Positions 4,268 through 52,299 are shown, counted from the first letter of the stretch. The stretch is 64,000 nt of DNA from Rhodothermales bacterium (GCA_965116435.1 OZ220686.1:325005-389004), one strand, 5' to 3'. Notes: a model not told the origin generated them from the sequence alone. Translations and numbers: made by a program.

Positions 4268-4545
4268 GGGCGTGCAGGAGCGTCTGGCTCGAGTCTGGCG
4301 GGCAGAATGGGCGCTTGGTTTGGGGTCTGGCGGGCAGAATAGACGTCTGGTTTGGAGGCCTGGCGGGCAGGGTGGGCGCCCGGTTTGGAATCTGACGGAC
4401 AGAATGGGCGCCCGGTTTGGGGTCTGGCATGCAGAATGGGCGCCCGGTTCGGGGTCCGGCGGGCAGAGTGGGTGCCTGGTTTGGGGTCTGGCATGCAGAA
4501 TGGGCGCCCGGTTCGGGATCCGGCGGGCAGGGTGGGCGCTGGGCC
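4268..4545. repeat. Tandem array of about 8 copies of a 32-bp GC-rich unit (consensus GGGTCTGGCGGGCAGAATGGGCGCCCGGTTTG)
   Basis: Units read directly at 4291, 4323, 4355, 4388, 4420, 4452, 4484 and 4516. The period is not divisible by 3, several frames are open on both strands, and there are no unique spacers. Confidence 0.9.
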
Positions 4546-4697: not shown

Positions 4698-7600
4698 GTG
4701 CGTAGCGTACCTCATCCAATATATCCAGATGCTTACCCGATGTTTATGCAGCCCCGTTTCCGACTGCGAGGAAGACATGACGATAGCCCGCCGGGCGTGG
4801 CTACGATCTCGCCGATTTCCCCTGCTGCGCAGGGATGCATGCGCAGAAATAGCCCCCCCCCCTCACTTTCCGGCGTTGGAGGTAGGGGCCGCGGCGGCGC
4901 CCCGGACGTACCATCCGGTTCCCGGCGGATTCTGCGCACCCGCGGCTTCGCGGCGTTTCTTTTCGCGCTGCTGGGCGTAGCGGGGCTGGCGGGTTTCGCA
5001 CGCCCCGCCGCCGGGCAGGACCCGGTTATCGTGTCCAAATCCTGGGCTTTCACGCCCAACGGGTTTGAGATTGGCGAACAGTTTCGGCTGCTCTTTGTAA
5101 CGTCCACCAAGCACGCCGCGAGCTCGACGGATATTGCGGACTACGACACATTCGTGCAGAATAGGGTGGCCGCCGGACATACGAAGATTCGGGAACACAG
5201 TAGCAAGTTCAAGGTGCTCGGCTCCACGTCGTCGGTAGATGCGATAGACCATACCGGGACGACCTGGACGGAGATGGACAAGGGCGTACCGATCTACTGG
5301 CTGAAAACTTCTATCGGGAGCGGCGCCAAGGTGGCCAACAACTACGAGGACTTCTACGACAATACGTGGATCAACCTCGACAACGCTAGGAATGAATCCG
5401 GGCAGAAAGTGATTACGCCCACCAATCTTGCGCATAGTATCGACATATGGACAGGGACAAATAACGACGGTACGAAGCATAAGTATCCTCTCGGCAACAG
5501 CAATCCAAATGGTAGAGTAATGTATGGTCAACCTTGGGACGGTAAACATCTAATTGGCACCAGCACTTGGGGGAGTAGGGATCAAACAAAACACCTCTAC
5601 GGCCTTTCCCCCGTGTTCGAGGTCGGCGTAGTGCCGACGAAGGTAACCCTTTCGGTGAGCGGCGGGGTTACGGAAGGGGGGGCGGGCCTCTCCATTACGG
5701 CGACCGCCTCGCAACGGAACGCCGAAGGGAATGCAGTGAGCATACCGATCTCGGTGCGGAGCCATGCCACGACCGCAGACGCCGCGGATTATACGGTGGC
5801 TTCTTCGATCAGCATTGCCAACAATGCGACGACCGGGACGACCACCTTGTCCGCGCCCTCGGGCGACGGCGACGAGCTCGTGGAGCAGGTGGTGGTCGGG
5901 CTGGACACGACGGCTACGTGGCCGGCCAACTGGCAGTGGGCGGATCCGGATTCGGTGATTGTCCCCATTACGGACAACGATCCGACGTCGGTGACGCTCC
6001 AGGTGACGGACGGCACGACGGACGAGGGGGATATGATGGACACGGCGGAGATTCAGCTTACGCTGGGCCGGGCGCTCGAATCTGGGGAGAGCATCGGGGT
6101 TCCGCTGCAGTTCGCCGGCGGCGCGCTGGGCACGAATTTTACCCTGGCCCTCTCCGGCACGCCCGCCGGCGTGGCGCTCAGTTCGAACACCGTGACGTTC
6201 ACCGGCGGCGCGGGGAACGCCTCCACGGCGACCCTGACGGTGACCGCCATGCAGGACGACCTCGGCGTTCCCGAGACGGTGACCGTGTCCATTCCGGCGT
6301 CCGACAGCGACACGCCGGGTCTTACGGCGACAGGCCTCGACGGCGGGGCCAGCGGCAGCGGCACGGGCGAGATTATGATTACGGACGACGAGCCGCCAAC
6401 CTACGTGGCGTCCATCCTGAGCGTGGCGCCGGACTCGTTCGAGGGGAACGGCACGGGCCACTCGGACCGGCTCATCACCTTTGACGTGACGCCCAGCCCG
6501 CCGGCAAAAATAAACGTCGATTTTTGCATGAGCGGCACGGCGACCTATGACCGGGACGGCGCGGAGGCGGATTATGAAATTGTCGATGCCCGCGGCGGCG
6601 GATGGGGTTTTCGCCGCGACGACAATTGCTCGACGGGCGGGTTCCTGATGCCCAACAACGCGGGGCCCTTCTCGATTCGGGTCTATAGAGATGACGATGT
6701 CGAAGAGGACGAAACGGTTACGCTGACGTTGACGACGAATAGTCAAACAGCGAACGACGTGATTATTTCCTCTACGAACAACACCGTGACCTACACGATT
6801 CTGAACGATGACTACCCGACGCTCGATTTGTCGGTGAGCGACGACGGGGAGGTGACGGAGGAGGGGGGCATGCTCACGGTGACGGCGACGACGAGCGAGA
6901 CGCTGTCCGGCAGCAGCCTTTCCATTCCACTGGAGCGCGTGGCGGCGCATTCGACCGCCGCCACGTCGGACTATACGCTTTCCGGGTCTCCGGCCGGCAC
7001 GATCACGATCGCCGACGGCGCGAGCAGCGGCTCCATTACGCTGACCACCGTGGGCAATATACGCGATGATTTCTCGAAAACGCTGCGCCTCGCCATGATG
7101 TCGCCGCCGGACGACTACGAGGTGGGCGCGGAGTATGTGGACGTGGTGCTCGTGGACGACGATTCGACGCAGGTGACGCTCTCCGTGCGAGCAGGAAACA
7201 ATACCGCCACGGAGGGCGACGCGACGGTGACGGCCAAGATAGACGTGCAGCCAGGACGGAATCTGGTGGCGCCCGAGGTGCTTGAGGTGCCGCTCCAGTT
7301 CAGCGGCGGCGCGCCCGGCGAGGATTTCTCGCTGACGCTGGAGGGTTCTCCTGCCGGCGTGGCGCTGGAGCCGACAACCGGCGTGTTGACCTTCACCGGT
7401 CCGGCCGGCAACGCCGTGGTCGTCGTGACCGCACTGGACGATGTGGACGGGATAGATGAACGGGTGACCGTAACGATACCGCTGAGTTCTGCAGGGTCCG
7501 CGCCGAAGCTCACGACGACGAACATGGATGGCGGCGCCGTGGGCGCGACAGTTGACCGCCTGGGCAGCAATGTCATTATGATCACGGACGACGACGAGGC

Positions 7601-10232
7601 TGCAGCGTCGTTCGCCTCGGCGTCGGCAAGCGAGGGGGAGGGGGCCGGGACGGTGGACCTGACGGTGAATCTGGCGCCTGCGCCAACCGAGGACATCACC
7701 CTGACCTATATGCTTACCGGCACGGCGGCGCGGGGTTCGGACTACGATATTTCGGGCGTGACGGGCAGCACGGGGACCTTGTCCGTGTTGACAGGCGCCA
7801 CGTCGGCGACCATTTCGGTCGATGTGACGGACGACATAGCCTGGGAGGACGCCGAAACGGTTGTGCTGACGCTTCAGGACGGCACGGGCTATGTGCTGGG
7901 CAGCACGACGGTGCACACGCTTACGATTACGGACAACGACACGGCAGAGGCCTCCTTCGCCTCGGCGACGTCGAGCGTGGGCGAGGCGGCCGGGACGAAC
8001 GTGACGCTCGACGTGACGGTGAATCTCAACCCCGCGCCGCCCGCGGCGATCACGCTGAACTATATGCTTTCCGGCACGGCGGGACGGATCGGGGATTACT
8101 GGATTGACGGGGTGACAAGCGCTACGGGGACCCTAACCGTGTCTCCGAACGCAACCTCCGCAAACATTACGGTGAACGTGCGGGACGACATGATCACGGA
8201 AGCGTCCGAGACGGTCCTGCTCACGCTGCAGCCCGGCGACGGCTATACGCTGGGGAGCACGAGGGTGCATACGCTTACGATTACAGACAACGATACGCCG
8301 GCGATTATCGTAACGCCTTCGCTGTTCGAGGCGCCCGAGGAGGGGCCGGCCAAGACCTACGCGATCCGCCTCGGCACGGAACCGCCGGGGACCGTGACCG
8401 TGACGCCCGTGTCCTCGGACCCGGGCGCGGCGACCGTATCCGGGCCGCTCACGTTCGACAGACTGGACTGGCAGACGGACCAGACCGTGACCGTAACGCC
8501 CGTGCAAGACAACGATGCGGACAACGAGACGGTGATGATTTCGCATACGGTGACGGGCTACGGCAGCGGGACGTCGTGGCCGGCCGTAACGGTTGCGGTG
8601 AACGACGACGAAATATCCCCGAATGTGGGCGTGACGACGAGCGCGCTGACGCTGGACCTTGCGGAGAACGGCGCCGCCGGGAGTTACATGATCCGCCTGA
8701 ACACGAACCCGGAAGCTACGGTGACCGTGACGCCTGTGTTGCCCCCGAACACAGACGCATTGACCGTTTCCGGGGCGCTTACGTTCGACGGGACTACCTG
8801 GGAGGATCCGCAAACCGTGACGGTGACGCCGCGACAGGATGCGGACTGGCTGGACAATACCGTGATGATCCGGCACCGGGTATCGGGCTATGCCGGGGTG
8901 CCGAGCAACGTTGCGGTCGGGCCGGTGACGGTGACGGTTGCGGACGACGACGAGGCGCCGCCGGTGGCCTCCTTTGCGTCCGCGTCGTCCAGCACGGGCG
9001 AAGGGACGGGGATCGTCAACGTACGGATAAACCTCAATCGCGCGGCGCCCTCGAACCTTACGCTCCGCTACAGAGTGGGCGGCACGGCGACGGGCGGAGA
9101 GGACGTTACCGTGGACAATTCCGGATCGGCCACGGTGCCTTCTGGCTCGGCGTCGGCCACGGTCACGGTGGCCATCTTGGACGACAGCGTAACGGAGGGC
9201 GTCGAAACCCTCGAACTGAGGCTCCAGAGCGGCACAGGCTACCAGGTAGGCGCCGTCAGCGTCCACATGATCGCCATCGACGACGACGATACGCCGAGCA
9301 TTGCGGCAAGCATGTCGTCCCTGGACCTGGACGAGGGCGGCGATCCCGGCGCCTACACGTTGGCCTTGGGCAGCCAACCAGACCGAACAGTAACGATCAC
9401 GCCGGTCTCGAGCGACAAGCAGGCGGCGACGGTATCGGGCGCATTGCGCTTCAATGGCTCCAACTGGCAGGACCCGCAGGTCGTCACGATAACTCCGGTG
9501 GACGATGCGGATGCGGACCACGAAACCGTAACGGTTACGCATGTCGTGACCGGCTACGGCGACATGACAATGGGGCCGGAGGTCGAGGTTTCTGTGGAGG
9601 ACGCCGCGGCGGCGGGCGTAAGGGCGAGCGTGCGCACGCTGTCCATTCAGGAGAACGGCGATCCCGCTACCTACACGCTGGCGCTGCGTACCGATCCGGG
9701 AGGCGCGGTCATTGTCACGCCGTCGTCCAGCGACGAGCAGGCGGCGACGGTATCGGGCGCGCTCACGTTCGACAGTTCCAACTGGCAGGCCCCGCAAACC
9801 GTCACGGTAACGCCTGTGAACGATACGAATGTGGAGGACGATATGGTGGTTATCTCCCATGCGGTGACGGGATATGCGGGCGTCGCGGCAGGGCCTGCCG
9901 TGCATGTCACCGTCGTGGACGCCACGACGATCATTTCCGTGGAAGAGGAAGAAAAGGAGGAGATTCCAACGGCCTTTGCGCTGGAGCAGAATTATCCGAA
10001 TCCGTTCAATCCGGTCACCACCATCGAGTTTGCGCTGGACAAGGCCGGGTACGTCACGCTCTCGGTGTACGACGTGCTTGGGAAGCAGGTGCGGCTCTTG
10101 ATGGACGGCGTACGGCCGGCGGCGCGGTACCGCGTTTCGTTCGACGCTTCGGGCCTGGCGAGCGGAACGTACCTGTACGTCCTGCGCACGGAGCAGCAAA
10201 CCGCCGTCCGAACCATGGCGCTGCTGAAGTAA
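4698..10232 (+). CDS. Giant secreted Calx-beta repeat protein with T9SS C-terminal sorting domain
   Basis: 1844-aa ORF. It contains many Calx-beta-type modules (e.g. ASFASA.S.GEGAGT..L.VNL.PAP...ITL.Y.L.GTA..G.DY.......L.....TSA.I.V.V.DD...E..ETV.LTL). The signal peptide is RGFAAFLFALLGVAGLAGFARPAAGQ and the C-terminus is FALEQNYPNPFNPVTTIEFAL...YLYVLRTEQQTAVRTMALLK. The start is uncertain (GTG 4698, ATG 4740/4746 or ATG 4839). Confidence 0.85.
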   Translation: MRSVPHPIYPDAYPMFMQPRFRLRGRHDDSPPGVATISPISPAAQGCMRRNSPPPSLSGVGGRGRGGAPDVPSGSRRILRTRGFAAFLFALLGVAGLAGFARPAAGQDPVIVSKSWAFTPNGFEIGEQFRLLFVTSTKHAASSTDIADYDTFVQNRVAAGHTKIREHSSKFKVLGSTSSVDAIDHTGTTWTEMDKGVPIYWLKTSIGSGAKVANNYEDFYDNTWINLDNARNESGQKVITPTNLAHSIDIWTGTNNDGTKHKYPLGNSNPNGRVMYGQPWDGKHLIGTSTWGSRDQTKHLYGLSPVFEVGVVPTKVTLSVSGGVTEGGAGLSITATASQRNAEGNAVSIPISVRSHATTADAADYTVASSISIANNATTGTTTLSAPSGDGDELVEQVVVGLDTTATWPANWQWADPDSVIVPITDNDPTSVTLQVTDGTTDEGDMMDTAEIQLTLGRALESGESIGVPLQFAGGALGTNFTLALSGTPAGVALSSNTVTFTGGAGNASTATLTVTAMQDDLGVPETVTVSIPASDSDTPGLTATGLDGGASGSGTGEIMITDDEPPTYVASILSVAPDSFEGNGTGHSDRLITFDVTPSPPAKINVDFCMSGTATYDRDGAEADYEIVDARGGGWGFRRDDNCSTGGFLMPNNAGPFSIRVYRDDDVEEDETVTLTLTTNSQTANDVIISSTNNTVTYTILNDDYPTLDLSVSDDGEVTEEGGMLTVTATTSETLSGSSLSIPLERVAAHSTAATSDYTLSGSPAGTITIADGASSGSITLTTVGNIRDDFSKTLRLAMMSPPDDYEVGAEYVDVVLVDDDSTQVTLSVRAGNNTATEGDATVTAKIDVQPGRNLVAPEVLEVPLQFSGGAPGEDFSLTLEGSPAGVALEPTTGVLTFTGPAGNAVVVVTALDDVDGIDERVTVTIPLSSAGSAPKLTTTNMDGGAVGATVDRLGSNVIMITDDDEAAASFASASASEGEGAGTVDLTVNLAPAPTEDITLTYMLTGTAARGSDYDISGVTGSTGTLSVLTGATSATISVDVTDDIAWEDAETVVLTLQDGTGYVLGSTTVHTLTITDNDTAEASFASATSSVGEAAGTNVTLDVTVNLNPAPPAAITLNYMLSGTAGRIGDYWIDGVTSATGTLTVSPNATSANITVNVRDDMITEASETVLLTLQPGDGYTLGSTRVHTLTITDNDTPAIIVTPSLFEAPEEGPAKTYAIRLGTEPPGTVTVTPVSSDPGAATVSGPLTFDRLDWQTDQTVTVTPVQDNDADNETVMISHTVTGYGSGTSWPAVTVAVNDDEISPNVGVTTSALTLDLAENGAAGSYMIRLNTNPEATVTVTPVLPPNTDALTVSGALTFDGTTWEDPQTVTVTPRQDADWLDNTVMIRHRVSGYAGVPSNVAVGPVTVTVADDDEAPPVASFASASSSTGEGTGIVNVRINLNRAAPSNLTLRYRVGGTATGGEDVTVDNSGSATVPSGSASATVTVAILDDSVTEGVETLELRLQSGTGYQVGAVSVHMIAIDDDDTPSIAASMSSLDLDEGGDPGAYTLALGSQPDRTVTITPVSSDKQAATVSGALRFNGSNWQDPQVVTITPVDDADADHETVTVTHVVTGYGDMTMGPEVEVSVEDAAAAGVRASVRTLSIQENGDPATYTLALRTDPGGAVIVTPSSSDEQAATVSGALTFDSSNWQAPQTVTVTPVNDTNVEDDMVVISHAVTGYAGVAAGPAVHVTVVDATTIISVEEEEKEEIPTAFALEQNYPNPFNPVTTIEFALDKAGYVTLSVYDVLGKQVRLLMDGVRPAARYRVSFDASGLASGTYLYVLRTEQQTAVRTMALLK
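4853..4862 (+). repeat. Homopolymeric C10 tract in the leader of the first Calx-beta gene
   Basis: Counted directly. It encodes SPPP between ATG 4839 (MRRNS) and the hydrophobic signal-peptide core. Confidence 0.95.
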
Positions 10233-10270
10233 GCCTGCGGGAGCGAGGGCGCGCGTCTTCGCCGTTTTTC

Positions 10271-10388
10271 GGGGGGATGTGGGGATTGATGTCGGTTTTT
10301 ATCCTGTTTTTAGGGGAAATGTGGGGACTACTGGCGTTATTTGTCCTGTTTTTCAGGGAGATGCGGGTTGTTGGCGGTGTTCGGGCGG
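10271..10388. repeat. Tandem repeat with a 42-43 bp unit, about 2.8 copies
   Basis: GGGGGGATGTGGGGATTGATGTCGGTTTTTATCCTGTTTTTA, then GGGGAAATGTGGGGACTACTGGCGTTATTTGTCCTGTTTTTCA, then a partial third copy. It lies in the spacer between Calx-beta genes 1 and 2. Confidence 0.8.
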
Positions 10389-10476
10389 CGCATTGCCTGG
10401 TACTTTTTGCAAAAAACGGCGGATTTTCGTATTATTAAAAACTGTGTTTTTCTTCGATTTTTTCAAGGGTGCGCTG

Positions 10477-13400
10477 ATGGAAGCGGATGTATTCAGCGCA
10501 TCCGTAGATACTACGGATACGGTGAGTTACCCATCTTTCAGAAAGAGAGGGGGGGGGGCGCAACCAGACAAACGAGGCGGCGCGCGGCCTGCATGTTCTT
10601 CTCTGAACCGGTCGGGAGAGGCGGTCCGGGCCTTGCGGGCGCGGCAGGCTTCTTTCCCGGCGCTTTGCTGTGTGTGCCTGCTGACCGGGTTCCTCGGATT
10701 CGCCCCCGAAACCGCCGCGCAATCGACCGGAAATGAGGTGACCGTCCGGGTGGACGTCCCGGAATACGTTGTAGAGGGCGAAACGGGGACGGTTACGGTG
10801 ACCTTGAGTAAGGCGCTGAGCCACCAGGTAGATATTCATTTACAGCCTGTAACCCTAGATTGCGACGATACCATCGGCGGAGCGGTACTGAATGGTAAGT
10901 ACACGCATACGATCGATTGCCCGGGAGGCGCAAAACCGATCGGTATAAATGATGTAGACTTCCCTATTGGATGGGTTGTTTTTCCCGCCGGAACAACCGT
11001 CAAAACCTTTTCGCTCGAGGCAGTGGACGACGCCGAATCGGATTCGCCCGAACTCGCTGCGATCGATCTGGCTTTTCGTGACGGCGTTCAACATCGTTGC
11101 CCCCACTGTACGATTGATTCGGCAACGCCTGCTGACGGCTGGACGACTGTTTGGCCGGATTCGGGGCCGGACCGCTTTTACTGGTTCGTTCCCATCCTGG
11201 ACGAAGCGCCGGGCATGGATCGTTCGACGGACAACTTGACGGTACAGGAAGGGAGCAGCAACACCTACACGGTGAAGCTGGCGACCCACCCCATCGCGGA
11301 TGTTGCGACCGTTACGCTGGACGTTCCAGACGGTACGGACCTGACCGTAGTAGATACGGACGGCCATCAGAATACGCTTTCCTTTACCGCATCCAACTGG
11401 AACGAAGCCCAGACCGTCACCGTCACCGCCGCCGAGGATGACGATGCGCACAACGAGACCGTGTCTGTGAAGCATACCCTGGCGGGGGGCATCTACGACA
11501 ATTGGGACGCCCCTCCCCTTAGCGTGACGATCGAGGACAACGACGCGGCCGGGGTAACTATTACGGAGTCGGACATGGCTACCAAGGTCAGCGAACCCAA
11601 CAGTACGGACACGTACGATGTGGAGCTGAAGTCCCAGCCTGCTGACGATGTAATGATTTCGGTACAGGCCGAGGCTGGCGTCACCGTAAAGAAGTCCGGG
11701 GGCACGGCGGCGGCTTCGCAGATGCTGACCTTTACCTCGTCGGACTGGAATACGGCCCAAACGATCACGGTGGCCGCCGTGGATGACGACATCGACGAGC
11801 CCGGCCGCACACGTAACGCCAAGATAACCCATACGTCCTCGTCCGACGACGACGATTATGACGGCGTGTCCGTGCAAGATGTGTTCGCGATCATCCAGGA
11901 CGACGACCCCACCGAGGTGACGTTATCCACGCCGGATTCGACGGCGACAGAGGGAAGTGACTCGGACACGGCGGAAATACTCCTGACGCTGAATCGGGGC
12001 CTTGTTCGCGGCGAAATGCTAACCATGCTGCTTGCATTTTCGGGAGGCGCAGTGGAAACGGACTTCACGTTGAGCCTGAAAGACAGTCCGACGGGCGTAA
12101 TATTTTTGCCCTCGTCGACGGCGGTTGCATTCGCAGGCCCGGAGAACGGAGAGTCGGCAACGTCCGCTACGCTCACCTTGACCGCCTTGAAAGACGCGGA
12201 CGCGCAGGACCAAACGGTAACCGTCTCCATTCCGAGCGAATCTTCGGGTACGCGGCCGGTGCTTATTGTTGCCAACCTGCCCGGAGGCGCGGAGGGCAGC
12301 CGAACGGGCAGCGGGCGGATCGTTTTTACGGACGACGACGAACCTGTGGTGTCCTTTGCATCGGCCACTTCCAGTACGAGCGAGGCGTCGGGCGAGCACG
12401 AGGTCACAATCAACCTGGATCCGGCGCCGGCCTCGAACATCTCGTTGCAATATAGATTCGGCTTCGGCGGCACGGCCACGGACAACGAAGACTATGTATG
12501 GCCGAAGGGATCGGGCAAATCCGCCCCATTGGCGGCGTCTCCGGAGGACGCCACTCTCCCGATTCCCGTAGAAATCATTGATGACAAGGTGACCGAGGGC
12601 GACGAGACGATGATGGTCACGATTCAGCCTGGGTCGGGCTATATCGTAGGCGACCAGGACACGTATACGCTGACCATTATCGATAACGACAAGGGAGGCG
12701 TTACGGTGACGCCGACCTCGCTTGAGCTTACAGAAGGCGGAGGCGCTGAAAAATACACGGTGGTTCTGGATACGGACCCTGGGGGCGAGGTCATGGTGAC
12801 GCCGAGGGCGGCAGATAACGGGGTCGTCAGGGTGTCGGGCCGGTTGACGTTCGACAGCAGCAATTGGGATACGAAGCGGGAGGTGACGGTTACTCCTCTG
12901 GACGATGCGGATGCGAACAACGAAAGCGTAACGATTAGTCATCTCGTCAGCGGCTACGTGGGCGTATCGCAATCGCGGGAGAACGACGTCACGGTACGGG
13001 TTACGGACGACGACAAGGCGGGCGTTACGCTGTCCACGCTTTCGCTCACCGTGCACGAAGGAAGCACGGAGGAATACACGGTCGTTCTGGATACGGATCC
13101 TCTTGTGGAGATCACGGTGACGCCAACCTCGAGCGATCCGGGGGTCGTCGCCGTTTCGTGCGGCGGCGCCGACCCGTGCGCATTGACGTTCGACAGCGGC
13201 AACTGGGATACGGCGCAGACGGTGACGGTTACGCCCGCGGACGATGCGGACGCGGACAACGAAAGCGTAACGATTATGCATACGGTCAGCGGCTATGCAG
13301 GCGTACCGAAGGGCCCCGATGTGGCCGTGGTGGTGGACGACGACGAAGTGCCTGTGGCGGCGGGCGTGGACGCGAACCCGTTGGCCGTGGCGCTCGAGGA

Positions 13401-15075
13401 GGGGAGCGGGATGTCTGAGACCTACGAGCTTGTGCTGCGCACGGACCCCGGGGGCGCGGTCACGGTGACGCCGTCGTCGAGCGATATGGAGGCCGCCACC
13501 GTTTCGTGCAGCGCCGACCCGTGCGCGTTGACGTTCAATAGCAGCAATTGGAGTACGGCGCAGACGGTGACGGTCACGCCTGTGGAGGATGCGGATGCGG
13601 ACAACGAAAGCGTAAAGATTTCGCACGCAGTGAACGGCTACGCGGGCGTATCGAAGGGGCCTGAGGTAATCGCCACGGTGGACGACGACGAAGAGCCGGT
13701 GCCTGCGGGGGTAGAGGCTCGCCCGTTGGCCGTGGCGCTCGAGGAGGGGAGCGGGATGTCTGAAACCTACGCGCTTGTGCTGCGCACGGACCCCGGGGTG
13801 GCGGTCACGGTGGCGCCGTCGTCGGACGATCCGGGGGCCGCCGCCGTCTCGTGCGGCGCCGACCCGTGCGCGTTGACCTTTGACAGCAGCAACTGGGACC
13901 AGGCGCAGAGGGTGACGGTCACGCCCGCGGACGACGACGATACGGACGACGAAAGCGTAAAGATTATGCATACGGTCAGCGGCTACGCGGGCGTATCGGA
14001 GGGGCCTGAGATAATCGCCACGGTGGACGACGACGACGAACCGGCGGCGGGCGTATCCTTTGCTTCTGCCGAATCCCGGGTGGGCGAGGGGGCAGAGTCC
14101 GTGCGCGTGACGGTGAATCTCGACCCGGCTCCGTCCGCGCCCATCGCGGTGCAGTATGCGGTAGCGGGGACGGCGACGGCAGGCGACGCGGGCGACGTGG
14201 TCATTGCGGGTTCCGGAACGGTATCGGCGGCTTCCGGCGCCTCCTCGGCCGCAATCCTGGTCACGATCGACGATGACGACGACCGCGAAAGCGACGAGAC
14301 GGTGATTCTGACGCTACGCGCGGGTACGGGCTACGATCTTGGCGATCCTCCGCACGAACACATCCTGACCATCCTGGACAACGACGAGGACAATGTGTCC
14401 GGCGGCGGAGGCGACAGTGGGGGCGGAAGTGGGGGTGGCGATCCGTCTCTGGTTACGCTGTCGGTTTCGCCGAACCCGGTCCCGGAGGGGGAGGCGGTTA
14501 TGGTTACGGCCACGCTTTCGCAACCGCTCGTCCGCAGTGCAGCGATTCCGCTGGCTATTGCGGCGGGCACGGCGGAAGCGGAGGATTACCAGGCCTTGCG
14601 CGCGATCGAGATTGCGGCGAACGAGGCAATCGGCGCGGGCGCGATATCCACGGCGGCAGACGCGGACCTGGACGACGAGACCTTCACGGTGTCGTTGGGT
14701 ATGTTGCCGCCCGGGATGGCGGCGGGCACGCAGGCGTCCGTCGAGGTGGTCATCGCGGACGCTACGAACATCGTGTCGAAAGAATCTTTCGAATCCGAAA
14801 ACGAAATTCCAACGTCCTTTGCGCTGGATCAGAACTACCCGAATCCGTTCAATCCGGTGACGACGATCGGGTTTTCGCTGGCGAGGGCGCAGCATGTGCG
14901 GCTGGTGGTGTACGACCTGCTGGGGCAGGAGGTGCGGGTGCTGCTGGACGGGGTGCGGACGGCGGCCCGGCACCGCGTGTCGTTCGACGCGTCGGACCTG
15001 GCGAGCGGGACGTACCTGTACGTACTGCGCACAGAAGAAGAAACCGCCGTCAGAACCATGGCCCTGCTCAAGTAG
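10477..15075 (+). CDS. Giant secreted Calx-beta repeat protein with T9SS C-terminal sorting domain
   Basis: The ORF 10279-15075 was trimmed to the first ATG (MEADVF, 10477). The signal peptide is FPALCCVCLLTGFLGFAPETAAQ. It has repeated Calx-beta-like modules, a Gly/Ser linker GGGGDSGGGSGGGD, and the C-terminus FALDQNYPNPFNPVTTIGFSL...YLYVLRTEEETAVRTMALLK. Confidence 0.85.
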   Translation: MEADVFSASVDTTDTVSYPSFRKRGGGAQPDKRGGARPACSSLNRSGEAVRALRARQASFPALCCVCLLTGFLGFAPETAAQSTGNEVTVRVDVPEYVVEGETGTVTVTLSKALSHQVDIHLQPVTLDCDDTIGGAVLNGKYTHTIDCPGGAKPIGINDVDFPIGWVVFPAGTTVKTFSLEAVDDAESDSPELAAIDLAFRDGVQHRCPHCTIDSATPADGWTTVWPDSGPDRFYWFVPILDEAPGMDRSTDNLTVQEGSSNTYTVKLATHPIADVATVTLDVPDGTDLTVVDTDGHQNTLSFTASNWNEAQTVTVTAAEDDDAHNETVSVKHTLAGGIYDNWDAPPLSVTIEDNDAAGVTITESDMATKVSEPNSTDTYDVELKSQPADDVMISVQAEAGVTVKKSGGTAAASQMLTFTSSDWNTAQTITVAAVDDDIDEPGRTRNAKITHTSSSDDDDYDGVSVQDVFAIIQDDDPTEVTLSTPDSTATEGSDSDTAEILLTLNRGLVRGEMLTMLLAFSGGAVETDFTLSLKDSPTGVIFLPSSTAVAFAGPENGESATSATLTLTALKDADAQDQTVTVSIPSESSGTRPVLIVANLPGGAEGSRTGSGRIVFTDDDEPVVSFASATSSTSEASGEHEVTINLDPAPASNISLQYRFGFGGTATDNEDYVWPKGSGKSAPLAASPEDATLPIPVEIIDDKVTEGDETMMVTIQPGSGYIVGDQDTYTLTIIDNDKGGVTVTPTSLELTEGGGAEKYTVVLDTDPGGEVMVTPRAADNGVVRVSGRLTFDSSNWDTKREVTVTPLDDADANNESVTISHLVSGYVGVSQSRENDVTVRVTDDDKAGVTLSTLSLTVHEGSTEEYTVVLDTDPLVEITVTPTSSDPGVVAVSCGGADPCALTFDSGNWDTAQTVTVTPADDADADNESVTIMHTVSGYAGVPKGPDVAVVVDDDEVPVAAGVDANPLAVALEEGSGMSETYELVLRTDPGGAVTVTPSSSDMEAATVSCSADPCALTFNSSNWSTAQTVTVTPVEDADADNESVKISHAVNGYAGVSKGPEVIATVDDDEEPVPAGVEARPLAVALEEGSGMSETYALVLRTDPGVAVTVAPSSDDPGAAAVSCGADPCALTFDSSNWDQAQRVTVTPADDDDTDDESVKIMHTVSGYAGVSEGPEIIATVDDDDEPAAGVSFASAESRVGEGAESVRVTVNLDPAPSAPIAVQYAVAGTATAGDAGDVVIAGSGTVSAASGASSAAILVTIDDDDDRESDETVILTLRAGTGYDLGDPPHEHILTILDNDEDNVSGGGGDSGGGSGGGDPSLVTLSVSPNPVPEGEAVMVTATLSQPLVRSAAIPLAIAAGTAEAEDYQALRAIEIAANEAIGAGAISTAADADLDDETFTVSLGMLPPGMAAGTQASVEVVIADATNIVSKESFESENEIPTSFALDQNYPNPFNPVTTIGFSLARAQHVRLVVYDLLGQEVRVLLDGVRTAARHRVSFDASDLASGTYLYVLRTEEETAVRTMALLK
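10550..10559 (+). repeat. Homopolymeric G10 tract in the leader of the second Calx-beta gene
   Basis: Counted directly. It encodes KRGGGA between ATG 10477 and the signal peptide. Confidence 0.95.
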
Positions 15076-15327: not shown

Positions 15328-15490
15328 GGAATGACGCCGCCAGCGTGCTCCTCGATGCCTCCCGAAGGGCGCTTCACGACCCCGACGACGCCAAACACCG
15401 TGTTTTCCGATGATTTTAACGATAGAATCATTACAAACGCTACTTGCGTACGTGAAGCGCTGATCGAAGTGGACTTGATCAGTGCATCCC
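15328..15490 (-). repeat. Copy 1 of an approximately 165-bp dispersed element shared with 52141-52304
   Basis: The reverse complement of 15328-15490 aligns by eye with 52141-52304 (GGATGCACTGATCAA.TCCACTTCGATCAGCGCTTCACGTACGCAAGTAGCGTTTGTAATGATTCTATCGTTAAAATCATCGGAAAACACGG...). It abuts the start of Calx-beta gene 3. Confidence 0.85.
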
Positions 15491-17992
15491 TATATTCCTG
15501 AAAATCAGAAAACAGCCATGGTCTTTCCGTTTCTTTTTGCCCATGATCCCATGGTTCGCGCCTGGAAAAAATGCGTCCATAGCGCTCCGGCAAGGCCGCG
15601 GACGCATTCTGCTCGTCGCTTTTTCCCGGCAAGGCCGCGGACGCATTCTACGCGTCGCCTTTTCCCGGCAAGGCCGTGTACGCATTCTGCGCGTCGCCTT
15701 TTCCCGCATCGTATTTTCGTTACGGCGCTATTCTCTGCGCTATTTTTTGCAGGAGGACTCGCTTGTGAGGTCAGCGCCGGGCCCATGGTCGAATTCGGCC
15801 GAGCGAACTACGACATGCACGAAGACCCGCGCGAGAACCTACGCGGGAATCCGTACGAGGAGCCCCTCCAGGACCTGCGAGAGGAGCCGCTCGATAACCT
15901 GCGCCAGAACCCGTGCACCTCGGACAACCCCGGCGCCCGCGTTGAACCCGTCGCCTCGCCCGTGCCCGAAGGGAGCATGGCCGAGTTCGCCGTCACGGTG
16001 TGTCCGGCTCCGTCAAGCGACCTCACGGTGACGCTCGAAACGCGCCAGGGCCTTTTTGCGGATTGGATTCCCGAGGCGCTCATGGGGTTTCAGACGGTGA
16101 CCGTGGGCACGAGCGGCATGGCGACGTTCTCGATTCCCACGAAGGACAACAATGTATGGGATGGCGGCGCACGGGGCGTGATCGTCGCGGTCTTCTCAGG
16201 GGTTGGCTACGAACTTGGAAGTCCCCTGAGCACTACCGTTGAAATCACGGACGACGAACCCGTCCCGTCTTCTCCAAGAGTCCTGCTTTCCGAGGCGAGG
16301 TCGGTCAAGACGCCGGCGCCTACCCTGTTTACGGTAGAGGCCCGTCCTGCGCCGACCACAGACCTGACGGTCAACCTTACCGTGGAGGAGACCGGCCTGG
16401 GGGACTTCGTGCCGCCGAGCGGGGAAGGCGCGCAGACGGTGACGATCCCTGCGGCCAGCGGATCGACAACCTATGCGGTTTTTCCGCAGGACAACGCAGT
16501 GGACGAGCCGGACGGGGAGGTGCAGGTTACGCTACAGTCCGGCACGGGGTACACGCTGGGGCCTGCGCGCAACCTTTCGCGCAGGGCGAACATCCTGGAC
16601 GGCGAGTCAACAACGGTGACGCTTTCGACGACGGCGAACGCGACCATGACGGAGGGGGAGAGCCGGACCTTCACCGTGGCGCTCGGACGCCGTCTTGTGG
16701 AGGGTGAGAACCTGACGGTAGTCCTGGCGCTGCGCGGGAGGGCCCTGGACAACGACTACATGTTGTCCGCCCCCTCCACGCCGGGGGTGACGTTCACGCC
16801 GCCCATTGAGCTGGAGTTCATCGGTCCTTTGGCGCCGCGGGAGGCGACGGTGACGGTCGAAGCGCTTTCGGACCGGGAGGTGGAAATGGACGAGACCATC
16901 GTTATACGTATCGGAAGCACACGCGGCGATTTCGGCGGCGGCGGAACCGCCTGGGAGGGGCAGGTCACGTTCACGCTTCAAGATGTGCCGCCGACGCGAC
17001 GGGTCACCCTCAATACCGCCACCGATTTTTCCTTGGGCGTAACCGAAGGAGATTTGGTGCCCTATCAGCTCTATATCGAGTCGTTTTTGCCCGGGGATAC
17101 CGATGTTCGGGTGAATGTGTCGGAGCAGGAAGGTTCCGATTTTCTGGACGCAAGCGAGGAGGGGGTCAGAATCATCAGGATTCCGGCGAACGCTTTTGAC
17201 AAGACGTTCTTTGTGGAGACGAAGGAAAGGGCCGGAATCCAGGCGGCGGGCGCGTTCACGGTGACGGTGGAGCCTGGCGATGGCTATACTCCGCACGACC
17301 CCGCTTCGTTCACCGTTCCGGTCAAAGACTTGAGCGATACGACGCCGTGGGTGGGTTTTAGCACGCTTTCGTCCGCCGAAGAGGAAACGTTCGGAACCGC
17401 TCTCGCCACCGTGCAAATTTCTCCGTCCTTCGATGATCCGGCAACCCTGACGTATAGCGTTTCGGGCACGGCGACGGAAGGGGCGGACTACCGCATCGCC
17501 AACTCCGGGAGCGTGCCGGTGCCCGCCGACCAGTCTTTCGTGAACATTCCGATTGAGATTACGAACGACATGGATGCCGAGGCGGACGAAACGGTTGTTC
17601 TGACGCTGATGGACGGCGAGGGCTATGCGCTGGGGCCGGGCGTGAACGTGTATACGTTGACCATTTTCGCTTCCGACGGGGGCAGCAACGAGCCGGTCGC
17701 CTCAGAATCGCTCGGCGACGAGATACCGGATGCCTTTGCGCTGGAGCAGAACTATCCGAATCCGTTCAATCCATTGACGACGATCGAATTTGCGCTGGCC
17801 AGGTCGCAGCATGTCCGGCTCGCGGTGTACGACCTGCTGGGGCAGGAAGTGCGCGTGCTGCTGGACGGCGTGCGCCCGGCGGCCCGCCACCGCGTGTCCT
17901 TCGACGCATCAAACCTGGCAAGCGGCGCCTACCTGTACGTCCTGCGCACGGAACAAAACACCACCGCCCGAACCATGACGCTACTCAAGTAG
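15482..17992 (+). CDS. Secreted Calx-beta repeat protein with T9SS C-terminal sorting domain
   Basis: 836-aa ORF (GTG 15482; alternative ATGs at 15518 and 15551). The hydrophobic signal core is IFVTALFSALFFAGGLACEVSAG. It has Calx-beta-like modules and the C-terminus FALEQNYPNPFNPLTTIEFAL...YLYVLRTEQNTTARTMTLLK. Confidence 0.8.
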   Translation: MHPYIPENQKTAMVFPFLFAHDPMVRAWKKCVHSAPARPRTHSARRFFPARPRTHSTRRLFPARPCTHSARRLFPHRIFVTALFSALFFAGGLACEVSAGPMVEFGRANYDMHEDPRENLRGNPYEEPLQDLREEPLDNLRQNPCTSDNPGARVEPVASPVPEGSMAEFAVTVCPAPSSDLTVTLETRQGLFADWIPEALMGFQTVTVGTSGMATFSIPTKDNNVWDGGARGVIVAVFSGVGYELGSPLSTTVEITDDEPVPSSPRVLLSEARSVKTPAPTLFTVEARPAPTTDLTVNLTVEETGLGDFVPPSGEGAQTVTIPAASGSTTYAVFPQDNAVDEPDGEVQVTLQSGTGYTLGPARNLSRRANILDGESTTVTLSTTANATMTEGESRTFTVALGRRLVEGENLTVVLALRGRALDNDYMLSAPSTPGVTFTPPIELEFIGPLAPREATVTVEALSDREVEMDETIVIRIGSTRGDFGGGGTAWEGQVTFTLQDVPPTRRVTLNTATDFSLGVTEGDLVPYQLYIESFLPGDTDVRVNVSEQEGSDFLDASEEGVRIIRIPANAFDKTFFVETKERAGIQAAGAFTVTVEPGDGYTPHDPASFTVPVKDLSDTTPWVGFSTLSSAEEETFGTALATVQISPSFDDPATLTYSVSGTATEGADYRIANSGSVPVPADQSFVNIPIEITNDMDAEADETVVLTLMDGEGYALGPGVNVYTLTIFASDGGSNEPVASESLGDEIPDAFALEQNYPNPFNPLTTIEFALARSQHVRLAVYDLLGQEVRVLLDGVRPAARHRVSFDASNLASGAYLYVLRTEQNTTARTMTLLK
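15586..15702 (+). repeat. Three tandem copies of a 39-bp in-frame unit (13 aa, ARPRTHSARRFFP) in the leader of Calx-beta gene 3
   Basis: Units start at 15586, 15625 and 15664. The period of 39 is divisible by 3, and the array lies between the candidate start codons and the hydrophobic signal core. Confidence 0.9.
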
Positions 17993-18704: not shown

Positions 18705-19138
18705 GCGAAGAATTAACGCAAGATCATCAGGAAGCATTGGTTCCGTCCGACGACCTCGATGAAGAAACGCTCCAGGATTTTTTCTTCCTGGAGAAGAGTC
18801 GGGTAGCCGCCGACCGCGAGCGGGTGCAGCTGGGAGTCAAGGCAATCGAAGCCCAGAGTGCTGCTGACCAGCGCCTATACGAATTTCAGATGGCTCAGTT
18901 GGACAAAGGGTATGAGGATAGACGGGACAGGTTCAAAGCGGCGCTAAAAATTATATGGGTCGCATTTGTATTTGTCATGCTGGGCGCTGGAGCGTTGTTC
19001 TACCTTCTTTTTGCAGGCAACGAACTTCAGCAGGATATGGCGTTTGAACTCCTGAAGTTGTTAGGCGCCGCCGTTGCAGGGGGGGGGGCCGTTTCGCTTA
19101 CTGCCAACGCCCTTAAAAAAGCCTCCTCCATGGTATAA
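18701..19138 (+). CDS. Hypothetical membrane protein (145 aa)
   Basis: Acidic coiled N-terminal part, then a TM helix IIWVAFVFVMLGAGALFYLLF. It is coupled to the upstream ORF and contains a G10 tract (AGGGA). Confidence 0.45.
   Translation: MSEELTQDHQEALVPSDDLDEETLQDFFFLEKSRVAADRERVQLGVKAIEAQSAADQRLYEFQMAQLDKGYEDRRDRFKAALKIIWVAFVFVMLGAGALFYLLFAGNELQQDMAFELLKLLGAAVAGGGAVSLTANALKKASSMV
19079..19088 (+). repeat. Homopolymeric G10 tract inside the 18701-19138 ORF
   Basis: Counted directly. Confidence 0.95.
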
Positions 19139-22383: not shown

Positions 22384-22911
22384 TCATCCCCATTTTCTTG
22401 CATACTTGGCCTTGGCATATACTGGGCAGATGAATGTAACCGTAATGCCAATTTCCATTAACGCATTATTATAGCCCCACCATTCGCTGTCTGTCGCTTG
22501 CAGGATCGGTGGCTTTGCCGGGTGCGCATTTGCAACAGCCACAAACTTGTGATCCGATTTGTCGAAATTTTTCAATTTGTCATGGACTGGAAATTCGTCG
22601 TATGAATCACCGTTTTTGGTGATGGTTACCCGGTCATCTTCAGGTAGACCCCAGCGATTATCGTGAACCCACTTCATGAAGGCATTACCCATTCCCTTAC
22701 GACCACTGATGGAAAGATTTTTTAAATATTCGTCATAGATTTCATCCCCGGAATCAATAACTAATGCACCTTTTTTTATAACATGATCAATGGCTTTGAC
22801 ACAATTTTGGACGCAATCGAACAGGTTGTCCGGAATGTCCTCTGAACCGATTGCCAAATTTGCAATCACCGGTACATTCGTGTCCACGATACATTTTGGC
22901 GGCCTATTCAT
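22384..22911 (-). CDS. PIN-like nuclease domain protein (175 aa)
   Basis: The N-terminal sequence CIVDTNVPVIAN is a PIN beta-1 acidic motif. Further conserved-position acidic residues occur in VIDSGDEIYDEY, FDKSDHKFVAVANA and LQATDSEW. The start ATG overlaps the upstream ATPase stop (ATGA). The region is low in GC. Confidence 0.6.
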   Translation of the reverse strand: MNRPPKCIVDTNVPVIANLAIGSEDIPDNLFDCVQNCVKAIDHVIKKGALVIDSGDEIYDEYLKNLSISGRKGMGNAFMKWVHDNRWGLPEDDRVTITKNGDSYDEFPVHDKLKNFDKSDHKFVAVANAHPAKPPILQATDSEWWGYNNALMEIGITVTFICPVYAKAKYARKWG

Positions 22912-24314
22912 CTGGATTCCTCCGGCTTTCCTGCGTGATTTTTGGCACGTTTTTTCAAGGCCGCCAAGGCTTGTTGTGTGATGTCTCCCATCTCATCGCC
23001 AAAGAAATTTTCGGGCCATTCCTTGATGTTTCCAAAGATATCAATTTGAAGGGGATTGAGCGTAGGAGGGGCCTTTGAAATATTCGCAAAATATGCGGAC
23101 ACGTTCTCTTGTGAGACAGCATCCTCAGCAATGCGTCTCTGCAAGCGTCGCAGGAAATATTCCGAGTGGGTTTCAATGATCAACTGGATATTTCTATCCG
23201 CCCCATTTTCTCTGGAATTGATCACGTCAACCAGCACATCGGCCAATGCCGATTGAGCGCTCGGATGCAGATGAATCTCCGGTTGTTCCATGAGAATTAT
23301 CGACCCGGGAGGCGCATAGAAACACTGCACGAGAACCGGCAAAACCTGCGAAATGCCGAAGCCGACATCCGGAAGATCAACCCAGTCCCTTGAACCTTTC
23401 GTACGAAGCTTTACCTCGTATTCTTGCCGCTGTTTGGATATGGGATTGACCTTGAATGCCTCAATCAGGCCCATTGCCTTGAGCTTGCTGGCGATAATTT
23501 CCTCGAAAGATTTGTATCGGCATCTATACCCAATGCTTATTTTTCGGTTTCGTGCCGCGAGAATAGCGGCGACCGTATTTTCTCCCGCATAGCCCACATG
23601 TTCGGGCTCAATGCCTGTCCATGAATACAAACGTTCAGCTTTTGTACGAAGCGGTCCTAAATAACAGATTGATCTGAACAATTTTTCATGGCGCAAGTTT
23701 AGTTGTTGCACAAATTCGGCATTTTGATGATAGGCAACTACCTCGTCAGGGAAGCCATAAAATCGAACCGGCGCCCCGGGATACCAGACACGTCCCTGTT
23801 TACGCTTTAGGGAATAATTCGCGGCTTCAACCTTGTAGGCAGATTTTGCGTCAGACTTTCTTTCCATTCCAATGGAAAGCTGAGTTTTATCATCTCCGAT
23901 CAATTCATATTTAAGCGCATCTACAGCCAATGTATGCCGATCTTTATCTCCCAGCCCCACTCCTACCTCGAACGTCAGTTCGTTTCCCGAGTACAATTGT
24001 TCCGATACGGAATCTTTAATCGTTAGCGAATTCGGCAGCGACCATCGATACTCGAAAGCGATGTTGTTTGCCGGGTCACGGCGAAACACCATCTCCTCGT
24101 AGGAACCAAGCTGAACAGCGGAATTTTTTGCACCAGGATAGAAGACCGCCTTTCGATCTGGAGACTCGACGGTCTGCTTCAGCATCATCAGGAATTGGCT
24201 TATGCTGGACTTGCCGGAGCTGTTAGCGCCAAAGAACAGGGAGATAGGAGCCATGCGAATGGCGCCGGTATCCTTCCAGGCTTTGAAGTTTTGTATTCGT
24301 AACTGCTGTAGCAT
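22908..24314 (-). CDS. ABC/AAA (AAA_15/21-type) ATPase with DUF3696-like C-terminal domain
   Basis: Begins LRIQNFKAWKD, with Walker A GANSSGKSS, Walker B ILMEQPEIHLHP and H-loop IIETHSEYF. The C-terminal tail is LNPLQIDIFGNIKEWPENFFGDE. 468 aa, in a low-GC region. Confidence 0.75.
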   Translation of the reverse strand: MLQQLRIQNFKAWKDTGAIRMAPISLFFGANSSGKSSISQFLMMLKQTVESPDRKAVFYPGAKNSAVQLGSYEEMVFRRDPANNIAFEYRWSLPNSLTIKDSVSEQLYSGNELTFEVGVGLGDKDRHTLAVDALKYELIGDDKTQLSIGMERKSDAKSAYKVEAANYSLKRKQGRVWYPGAPVRFYGFPDEVVAYHQNAEFVQQLNLRHEKLFRSICYLGPLRTKAERLYSWTGIEPEHVGYAGENTVAAILAARNRKISIGYRCRYKSFEEIIASKLKAMGLIEAFKVNPISKQRQEYEVKLRTKGSRDWVDLPDVGFGISQVLPVLVQCFYAPPGSIILMEQPEIHLHPSAQSALADVLVDVINSRENGADRNIQLIIETHSEYFLRRLQRRIAEDAVSQENVSAYFANISKAPPTLNPLQIDIFGNIKEWPENFFGDEMGDITQQALAALKKRAKNHAGKPEESR

Positions 24315-31185: not shown

Positions 31186-31378
31186 GGTGCGGCCTGTCCC
31201 GGACAACCTGTCCGCTATGTCCCTGCGGCGCACGGGTGCGGGTGGCAGAAGACGCGGGGACGGCAGGGCACGATGCAGGTGTCGGTGACGCGGGTGCGCG
31301 TATTTCCGGCCCGACATTGCGGTACCCTGCGCGTCTCAGGGACTCTCCGGGCTGTTGTCGCAGGAGTGCACGGTTTTT

Positions 31379-31768
31379 ACTGTGATCAGAGGTGGGCCAA
31401 AAAAGCGAAAGCCCCGGTCCATCCCTTAACTCGAAGAGCGGGGGAGGACCGGGGCGATCGCTTGGGTGGGGGGCAAGTGGTGTCGAAGGAGGCAGATGAA
31501 GGAATACGCGAGCGGTTTTTCCTGTGATCAGGGGCGGCAAAGGGGCGAACGTCCCCGGTCCATCCCCTTAACTCGAAGAACGGGGGAGGACCGGGGCGAT
31601 CGCTTGGGTGGGGGGCAAGTGGTTTCGAAGGAGACAGATGAATGAATACGCGGGCGGTTTTTCCTGTGATCAGGGGCGGCAAAGGGGCGAGCGTCCCCGG
31701 TCCATCCCTTTAACTCGAAGAGCGGGGGAGGACCGGGGCGATCGCTTGGGTGGGGGGCAAGTGGTGCG
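31379..31768. repeat. Tandem array of 2.7 copies of a 142-bp unit, each carrying a long imperfect hairpin
   Basis: Units start at 31379, 31521 and 31663. Each contains CCCCGGTCC-A-TCCC..loop..GGGG-GA-GGACCGGGG (e.g. 31413-31455). The array sits between the convergent ends of the GT-MT gene and the TetR gene. Confidence 0.9.
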
Positions 31769-32589: not shown

Positions 32590-32599
32590 GTCGTGCGGT

Positions 32600-32960
32600 G
32601 TTTGCGGGGGTGTTTCGCGAGATTTTGCCGGGGATGTTTCTTGGAACGTTTCCTGGGGCGTTTCCCGAGGTGTTTTGCGGGATGTTGCCGAGGATGTTTC
32701 CCGGGGCGTTTCCCGAGAGGAGGCTTCCTGAGGCGTTTCGCCGCGTGTTTCCCGGGACGTTTCTCCGTGCGTTTCCCGGGGTATTTCCTGAGGCATTTCT
32801 TGGGGTGTTGCCCGAGGTGTTTCGCGGGATGTTGCCGAAGATGCTTTGCCGAGCGCTTCGCGGGGAGTTGCTCGAGAGGAGGCTTCCTGAGGCGTTTCTC
32901 GAGGCATTTCGCCGCGTGTTTCCTGAGGCGTTTCTCCGTGCGTTTCCCGGGGCGCGGCGG
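32600..32960. repeat. About 360 bp of degenerate 12-bp periodic repeat (GTTTCCCGAGGC-like; reads ETPR/ETPQ/ETSR on the minus strand)
   Basis: The periodicity was read directly. All six frames are largely open. The region is contiguous with, and in frame with, the TetR ORF. Confidence 0.8.
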
Positions 32961-51800: not shown

Positions 51801-51940
51801 CGCTATCCATAGAACGCGGCGAGCGAAAAGGACGCGCCGCGGCGCCGAAGCAGCACCTGATTTACAAGATAGCCCCCCCCCCCCCTCACGTTCGAGGAAT
51901 CATTCCCAGAATCGTTCCCCCGAAGAAACGAAGAAATCAT
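48828..51940 (-). pseudogene. Calx-beta/T9SS-CTD paralogue B, with its start codon out of frame because of a G13 tract (candidate phase-OFF allele)
   Basis: The body ORF 48828-51782 (984 aa) starts only at a Met inside the hydrophobic core (MVCTVWGPISEAAAQ). The homologous leader MISSFLRGNDSGNDSSNVRGGGG starts at ATG 51940 in another frame and stops at 51803. G11 or G14 would fuse the two. Confidence 0.8.
51873..51885 (-). repeat. Homopolymeric G13 tract (C13 on the + strand) in the leader of paralogue B
   Basis: Counted directly (8+5 C across the line break). Confidence 0.95.
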
Positions 51941-52140: not shown

Positions 52141-52299
52141 GGATGCACTGATCAAATCCACTTCGATCAGCGCTTCACGTACGCAAGTAGCGTTTGTAAT
52201 GATTCTATCGTTAAAATCATCGGAAAACACGGCGTTTTGCGACGCCGGGGTCGTGAAGCGCCCTTCGGGAGGCATCGAGGGGTGCGCGAGGCGGACGCA

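Follow-up and report, generated by a model that had tools for sequence, protein, structure and literature searches.

Why should the genes for several large secreted proteins carry a long run of a single base in front of the signal peptide? The question is raised by a 64,000-nucleotide (nt) stretch of a Rhodothermales bacterium genome (GCA_965116435.1 OZ220686.1:325005-389004; hereafter the window, with positions counted from its first letter), in which five open reading frames (ORFs), here called g1 to g5, encode Calx-beta proteins with the C-terminal domain (CTD) of type IX secretion system (T9SS) cargo. An earlier note on this DNA had pointed out runs of ten C or G in the leaders of g1 and g2, and had taken the consistent position of such runs as an argument for function over chance. 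We consider it probable that the tracts are slipped-strand contingency switches of T9SS Calx-beta cargo genes, and we are fairly confident of slippage switching for the tracts as a class and for g1.

Census and placement of long G/C runs

A Pfam search found Calx-beta domains together with Por_Secre_tail (PF18962) in the five ORFs, with PF18962 above threshold in all of them. The five proteins combine this domain with an N-terminal signal peptide, as T9SS cargo does; the signal peptides were recognised by inspection, their hydrophobic cores and A-x-A-like sites being judged by eye, without a signal-peptide predictor.

The whole window has a G+C content of 60.6% and holds 94 G/C runs of 5 nt, 21 of 6 nt and six of 7 nt, none of 8 or 9 nt, and exactly seven longer ones, all of 10-14 nt (Table 1). 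Because of this gap at 8-9 nt, followed by seven runs of at least 10 nt, the long runs form a separate class; by geometric extrapolation from the shorter runs, only about 0.1 such runs would be expected in the window. Four of the seven lie in the leaders of CTD genes, between an upstream ATG and the hydrophobic core of the signal peptide, and a fifth interrupts a gene for a Type III methyltransferase (mod). Counted by gene, four of the five CTD genes (g1, g2, g4 and g5) have a tract of at least 10 nt at this place, and the tally given in the earlier note was thus found again. With leaders taken as about 1.6% of the window, our own arithmetic gives p ~2e-6 for four of seven tracts in CTD leaders, or ~8e-5 if the paralogues g4 and g5 are merged as one event. 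Runs of at least 9 nt are rare in the background sets: three occur in 1.32 Mb of loci from 80 other genomes of Bacteroidota and the FCB (Fibrobacterota-Chlorobiota-Bacteroidota) group, and one occurs in T9SS-CTD loci from metagenomes (0.82 Mb), a rate of about one run per 0.4-0.8 Mb. (When metagenome proteins were scanned with g2, the generic CTD motif DQNYPNPF dominated the matches; the scan returned no same-species loci and served as background only.) A chance origin of the long tracts is excluded. In length and in over-representation, both the C10 of g1 and the G10 of g2 have the properties of a slipped-strand contingency locus. Moreover, the only frameshifted genes identified in the window, g5 and mod, are those broken at long tracts.

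Not every long run here is a conserved switch. The G10 at 19079-19088, which encodes Gly-Gly-Gly, is interrupted by synonymous changes in the related strain contig L082 (GCGGGGGGAGGGG; GGGGGGAGGGG; ~14104-14116), and is probably incidental.

Table 1. Positions of the long G/C runs, the cargo genes and their control elements, the Type III genes, and the flanks of the leader tracts (written 5' to 3' on the C-rich strand).
Feature	Location	Positions	Strand	Remarks
C10	window	4853-4862	+	g1 leader
G10	window	10549-10558	+	g2 leader
G10	window	19079-19088	+	Gly run near the end of a 145-aa ORF
G12	window	30983-30994	+	C-terminal tail of a GT87/methyltransferase ORF
C14	window	42348-42361	+	splits the Type III methyltransferase gene (mod)
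C11	window	47720-47730		g4 leader; reads as G11 on the minus-strand gene
C13	window	51873-51885		g5 leader; reads as G13 on the minus-strand gene
g1	window	4839-10232	+	1797 aa from ATG 4839; ORF intact
g1 signal-peptide hydrophobic core	window	4947-5000	+	FAAFLFALLGVAGLAGFA
Terminator-like hairpin	window	10243-10262		just past the g1 stop codon, before the g2 promoter-like site
g2 promoter-like site	window	10407-10435	+	TTGCAA, 17 nt, TATTAT; arranged much like the g4/g5 promoters
g2	window	10477-15075	+	1532 aa if from ATG 10477; alternative start TTG 10633
g2 candidate start TTG	window	10633-10635	+	L of RALRAR; would yield MRARQASFPALCCVCLLTGFLGFAPETAAQ; only g2 has such a start after the tract
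g3	window	15518-17992	+	fifth CTD gene; no homopolymer in leader
res-like Type III restriction gene	window	37833-40649		upstream of mod
mod, Type III methyltransferase	window	40667-43197	+	split by C14
g4	window	45068-47773	-	leader G11 in frame with ATG 47773 (ON)
g5	window	48828-51940	-	g4 paralogue; leader G13 out of frame with the conserved ATG 51940 (OFF)
g1 flank	window			AAATAG-C10-TCAC
g4, g5 and L081 flank	window; L081	18110 (L081 site)		AGATAG-Cn-TCACG; antisense to the gene
Gene A flank	L163	82		TGATAG-C12
Gene B flank	L163	9881		TAATAG-C9/C11
L164 flank	L164	10090		GGATAG-C10; antisense to the gene

Leader tracts and the reading frame

The start region of g1 reads ATG CGC AGA AAT AGC C10. 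The run begins 11 nt past ATG 4839, four codons after it, in a leader that reads MRRNSPPPSLSG, and it is in frame both with this ATG and with the signal-peptide core downstream, just as the earlier note had described. When other lengths are simulated, C13 also keeps the frame, while C9, C11 and C12 lead to a stop within 15-46 codons. In g1, g4 and g5, the stretch from the tract to the signal-peptide core contains no ATG, GTG or TTG. Given this lack of a later canonical start, with early stops at one nt more or less, the logic of the ORF would place the g1 tract inside the translated region, and g1 is expected to act as a frame switch, at present ON. Homologues of the g1 N-terminal domain on contig L168 have short, ordinary signal peptides (MRTGLLFLLL...) without a tract. 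Compared with them, g1 has a 35-aa N-terminal extension, and its CTG 4932 aligns with and replaces the ATG of the short versions. We infer that a proximal start was lost and that g1 expression came to depend on the upstream ATG and the tract.

Differences in tract length are found at sister loci. Contig L081, from the same species (97.6% nucleotide identity) and found via an identical IMPDH protein, has one leader that is nearly identical to those of g4 and g5. The likeness starts at a promoter-like TTGAAA, 18 nt, TATATT, takes in the ATG (MISSFL...) and reaches the signal peptide, whereas g4 and g5 as mature proteins share only ~59% identity. At the one conserved tract site of these leaders, g4 has G11, g5 G13 and L081 G10, and G11 alone is in frame; the frame of g5 would be restored by G11 or G14. 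The other indels inside this leader ORF measure 12, 72, 9 and 3 nt, each divisible by three, and the one indel of 1 nt is found directly upstream of the ATG. This distribution indicates that the g4/g5 leader is under coding constraint, with the tract as its sole frame-breaker. The OFF copies keep intact promoters, leaders and downstream ORFs of ~3 kb. As a separate observation, the L081 gene (18205-20898) is the one cargo gene in the place of g5; it resembles g5 in its 5' part (89%) and g4 in its 3' part (91%), a chimera that points to recombination between the paralogues.

Three further Calx-beta/CTD genes with 5' tracts were found in a related Rhodothermales genome of 3.07 Mb. Gene A begins ATG-CAT-GAT-AGC-C12 and passes directly into the signal peptide, so that its tract, three codons past the ATG, repeats the architecture of g1. 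In L163 the gene is complete (3225 aa), while that of L165/L166 has C11 and meets a stop after 18 codons, without a usable alternative start. The tract of gene B is C9 in L163 and C11 in L165/L166 and L167, and an independent CTD gene on L164 has an in-frame G10 90 nt past its ATG. Length polymorphism in non-triplet steps is therefore seen at the g4/g5/L081 site and in genes A and B. Contig names suggest a 149x circular assembly for L163 as opposed to scaffolded metagenome assemblies from other samples. By its Met-zincin gene the window belongs to uncultured Rhodothermales. The closest species representatives in GTDB, 85-88% identical at the protein level for this gene, have no long runs in the 22 kb compared; their g5 position is taken by other T9SS cargo genes, and neither g4 nor the restriction-modification island is present (both are absent in the relative L001). 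For the CTD-leader class, the argument of the earlier note for function over chance is borne out by the G11/G13/G10 site, by the C12/C11 and C9/C11 genes and by the relatives without tracts; for g1 and g2 themselves the support is indirect.

The g2 tract was present and in frame as previously claimed, one nt away from the 10550-10559 given for it. It starts 69 nt past ATG 10477 and reads ...FRKRGGGAQ, in frame with the signal-peptide core, and when read from this ATG a change of one nt in either direction produces early stops. It also lies 75 nt upstream of the in-frame TTG 10633. Its flank, AGAGA-G10-CGCAACC, lacks the ATAG motif discussed below; the GCAAC that is common to the flanks of three other tracts was judged a probable coincidence. 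In L082 a 45-nt palindromic element of the repetitive extragenic palindromic (REP)-like type is inserted after the g2 -10 box and before the ATG (~5225-5270), a further point that weakens the frame-switch reading of g2.

The proposed mechanism would work as follows. A G/C run of 10-14 nt would gain or lose a base during replication by slipped-strand mispairing. Since the g1 run lies after the start and before the signal peptide, lengths other than 10 +/- 3n would shift the frame, bring a stop within some 15-46 codons and yield no T9SS cargo. C10 would be the ON state of g1, and g4 (G11, ON) and g5 (G13, OFF) would behave likewise. Read from ATG 10477, g2 would be a frame switch that is now ON; read from TTG 10633, its tract would lie in the 5' untranslated region (UTR) and would at most modulate the expression level. 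The Type III methylase of the window would be toggled by the same device. In a population, individual cells would then each display a different subset of the large Calx-beta surface or secreted proteins. Slippage is presumably frequent and reversible within populations, the upstream ATGs are presumably the starts in use, and the switches might play a role in interactions with a host or with phages. The bacterium is probably sponge-associated. Many of the Calx-beta homologues come from metagenome-assembled genomes (MAGs) of sponge symbionts, and sample labels suggest that several of the related contigs stem from a study of Ircinia sponges that reports Rhodothermia MAGs (PMC9531527).

Other repeats accompany the leaders. 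In g3 the leader contains an in-frame 39-nt (13-codon) tandem repeat (15587-15706), with three copies in the window and four in L082 (~10650-10810), a second kind of variability in the leaders, one that preserves the frame. The palindromic REP-like element inserted before g2 in L082 is also present in the window: as a 33-nt sequence (GCGCTGATCGAAGTGGAYTTGATCAGTGCATCC) it stands upstream of g3 (15457-15489, plus strand) and of g5 (52141-52173, minus strand). Tandem arrays are located just upstream of the promoter regions of g1 and g2, at 4293-4539 (7.7 copies of a 32-nt unit) and 10264-10347 (2.2 copies of a 42-nt unit).

Alternative readings of the tracts

Several observations weigh against frame switching, and a first group of them fits a different arrangement, in which the tracts belong to leaders that are not translated. 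The start codon would then be near the signal peptide (TTG 10633 in g2, ATT 4929 or CTG 4932 in g1, ATT 47662 in g4), and tract length would tune transcription, mRNA structure or coupling to an upstream ORF. We regard this as a possible but rather unlikely account of the tracts in general. It is at its strongest in g2: ATG 10477 is ATT in L082, with a TTG in the preceding codon; of the substitutions between the two strains, none is synonymous and 3 are non-synonymous ahead of the tract, against 5 synonymous and 2 non-synonymous after TTG 10633, a pattern that is coding-like only beyond this codon, after which a textbook signal peptide follows. The L082 ATT, TTG 10633 and the substitution pattern together mean that the g2 tract may lie in the 5' UTR. 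The earlier note had already cautioned that this in-frame TTG (in RALRAR) could be an alternative start, a caveat that stands and is now strengthened. The leader of gene B, with 1- and 2-nt indels and a conserved internal ATG, likewise implies that some tracts are probably in UTRs, possibly including that of g2. The composition of the leaders is not coding-like either, their G+C content at third codon positions being 0.54-0.70 against 0.75-0.80 in the mature coding regions, and an ATT occurs two to nine codons before the hydrophobic core in g1, g3 and g4. Other observations speak against untranslated leaders. No canonical start follows the tract in g1, g4 and g5, and the ATT of g4 is replaced by GTT in g5 and L081. 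The indels of the g4/g5/L081 leaders respect the triplet everywhere except at the tract and just before the ATG, and in gene A the short distance from the ATG through the tract to the signal peptide also speaks against it. Finally, the leader RNAs of g1 and g2 fold no more stably than shuffled sequences (z 0.04 and -1.55) and have no Rfam match, by which a structured RNA leader is ruled out.

A second group of observations against slippage switching concerns the tract lengths themselves. The lengths compared are consensus values of assemblies, some of them from long reads. The g2 tract is G10 in L082 as well, the only other strain that covers the g2 leader. A second copy of the g1 leader was not retrieved, and length variability at 4853 is thus not shown. 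The single syntenic contig, L082 (92-95% identity), starts inside g1; exact-protein look-ups for three genes that lie upstream of g1, a scan of the proteins of GTDB genomes with the g1 N-terminus and a search of Joint Genome Institute (JGI) metagenomes with a DNA pattern spanning the g1 tract gave no match; homologue searches with the g1 N- and C-terminus returned matches of 44-58% identity only; and two proteins from the searches (P0212, P0224) were not placed on contigs. The OFF copies, moreover, could be decaying genes rather than reversible states.

It is conceivable, though improbable, that the lengths and OFF states are merely long-read consensus errors or fixed inactivating mutations, in which case the tracts would be ordinary poly-Pro and poly-Gly runs, the OFF copies decaying paralogues, and nothing would switch reversibly. 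Within g1, L082 differs from the window by 1 nt at runs of G5-G7, as is typical of homopolymer miscalls, and its homopolymer calls may therefore be unreliable; the plain glycine run at 19079 and the strong variation of the cargo set between relatives (g4 absent in L001, other cargo genes at the g5 position) point the same way. Sequencing error and decay would nonetheless have to account for run lengths that are bimodal and positions that are non-random. The 5.4-kb and 4.6-kb ORFs of g1 and g2 are free of frameshifts despite their many G5-G7 runs. The C12/C11 and C9/C11 differences separate the circular assembly from the metagenomes of other samples, the OFF copies retain their promoters, leaders and long ORFs, and 5' tracts recur in several non-orthologous CTD genes of two species.

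The surroundings of the tracts show a further feature. On the C-rich strand, the CTD-leader tracts share the 5' flank RATAG in either gene orientation (Table 1), although it is missing from g2 and from one strain's gene B. Among the C runs of the loci of this lineage, ATAG stands directly before 9 of the 16 runs of at least 9 nt; the corresponding counts are none among 310 for runs of 5-8 nt and 6 among 1019 for those of 4 nt. The flank of mod, GATATACAAGATA-C14-ACACG, matches that of g4, GATTTACAAGATAG-C11-TCACG, at 12 of 13 and 4 of 5 positions, even though mod and g4 are not related. The flank could stem from ectopic conversion that the homopolymer seeds, or it could be a small mobile module or mark a binding site. 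A more far-reaching idea, tentative and somewhat doubtful in our eyes, is that the leader tracts are copies of one hypermutable RATAG-Cn module, put in either orientation ahead of T9SS cargo signal peptides once the proximal start had been lost, and placed in a restriction-modification gene as well, and that the module spreads by homopolymer-seeded ectopic conversion or is recognised by a lineage-specific factor. If true, a sponge symbiont would possess a programmable, combinatorial Calx-beta display. The aggregation factor of the sponge is itself built from Calx-beta domains (PMC5400394, PMC11670116).

That tract and RATAG form a module for recognition or insertion, either a site bound by a protein or a short cassette that ectopic conversion or transposition has spread, and that the main role of this module is not frame control but, for example, recombination of cargo genes, seems very improbable: the enrichment of ATAG, the restriction of RATAG-flanked tracts to CTD leaders in both orientations, the likeness of the mod and g4 flanks and the L081 chimera would all suit it, but an enzyme that would go with it was not identified, the sequence left of the mod tract aligns loosely with homologue linkers and need not be an insertion, the motif is not universal, and such a module would be compatible with a slippage switch rather than a replacement for it. 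A promoter-spacer switch is ruled out, as the tracts lie 110-150 nt downstream of the promoter-like pairs and not between -35 and -10.

The mod gene, known phase-variable systems and neighbouring features

The Type III system brings together a methyltransferase gene, a restriction partner and a tract within the ORF, the combination that characterises a phasevarion gene. The PADLOC profile MTase_III matches mod both before the tract (7.6e-131) and after it (1.6e-21), and REase_III matches lie upstream. C14 is out of frame, and C15 would give a full-length protein of 843 aa; mod thus looks like a phasevarion candidate that is currently OFF. The closest homologue, P0327 (73% identity), also runs on in the wrong frame past the same linker. 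This linker, which contains the tract, is variable and acidic and follows the catalytic domain; its left flank encodes LDDIQD and aligns loosely with homologue linkers such as PIDGIIESE. An inserted cassette in mod is not supported, as the linker is only 2-4 residues longer than those of the homologues.

Homopolymer-slippage phase variation is a hallmark of bacteria confronted with a host that is adaptive or discriminating, and it has been studied mostly in a few pathogens. Campylobacter jejuni, Helicobacter pylori and Neisseria, for example, have homopolymeric contingency loci with poly-G/C tracts in surface-structure genes. As in these loci, the tracts of the window are G/C runs of at least 9-10 nt early in the ORFs of surface or secreted proteins, where non-triplet changes alter the frame; ON and OFF alleles exist among strains and paralogues, and there are several loci per genome. 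They differ from the pathogen loci in their bearer, an uncultured Rhodothermales bacterium (Bacteroidota) that is probably a sponge symbiont and not a pathogen, and in their targets, which are T9SS cargo. They also differ in their place in an N-terminal extension before the signal peptide and in the orientation-independent RATAG flank of many of them.

Phasevarions, governed by phase-variable Type III mod genes, are known in Haemophilus, Neisseria and Helicobacter. There, too, a Type III mod stands beside a restriction gene and has a repeat tract in its ORF, which here is one base out of frame. The repeat of the window is a C14 homopolymer in a variable linker past the catalytic domain, and the order is res-like gene and then mod. 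Poly-C/G switches in promoter spacers, as in Bordetella fim and Neisseria porA and opc, likewise place a homopolymer in the 5' control region of surface-protein genes; in the window, by contrast, the promoter-like -35/-10 pair and the first ATG both precede the tract. Bacteroides varies its surface structures by invertible promoters and an invertase. Phylum and stochastic surface variation are shared with this case, but the variation described here is one of tract length, a wholly different mechanism, and no inverted repeats were found flanking the leaders of g1 or g2. The mechanism proposed for the Rhodothermales tracts is a classical one; new in detail are the lineage and secretion system in which it occurs, the way the leaders are built and the flank they conserve. 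Full-text literature searches found no paper joining homopolymeric phase variation with the T9SS, nor did we come upon an account of it for this lineage, and homopolymeric tracts at the 5' ends of genes have already been described as a general regulatory device (PMC2831843).

Several switches on T9SS Calx-beta proteins, together with one on a Type III methylase, suggest that this marine Rhodothermales lineage bet-hedges its surface display. There is also a practical consequence. Gene callers truncate or split such genes at the tracts, as happened in L081, L165/L166, g5 and mod, and the cargo repertoires of such MAGs are therefore mis-annotated.

Further features were noted around these genes. 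Adjoining the Type III restriction-modification system is a TIR-like candidate defence gene, PDC-S35 (43194-44021, plus strand). A candidate defence pair, HEC-03A/B, lies in a stretch of lower G+C content (22384-24314, minus strand). A glutaminyl/glutamyl-tRNA synthetase gene has a C-terminal GatB/YqeY domain (24506-26929, minus strand). L165/L166 of the related species have an intergenic G12 (14451-14462) upstream of a RhuM-family gene. This run is not found in L163, where AbiEi/AbiEii occupy the place. In the window, the G12 in the tail of the GT87/methyltransferase ORF is preceded by 21-nt repeats (30920-30994), and a 142-nt tandem repeat (2.8 copies) and an array of 12-nt repeats lie near it (31371-31766, 32597-32954).

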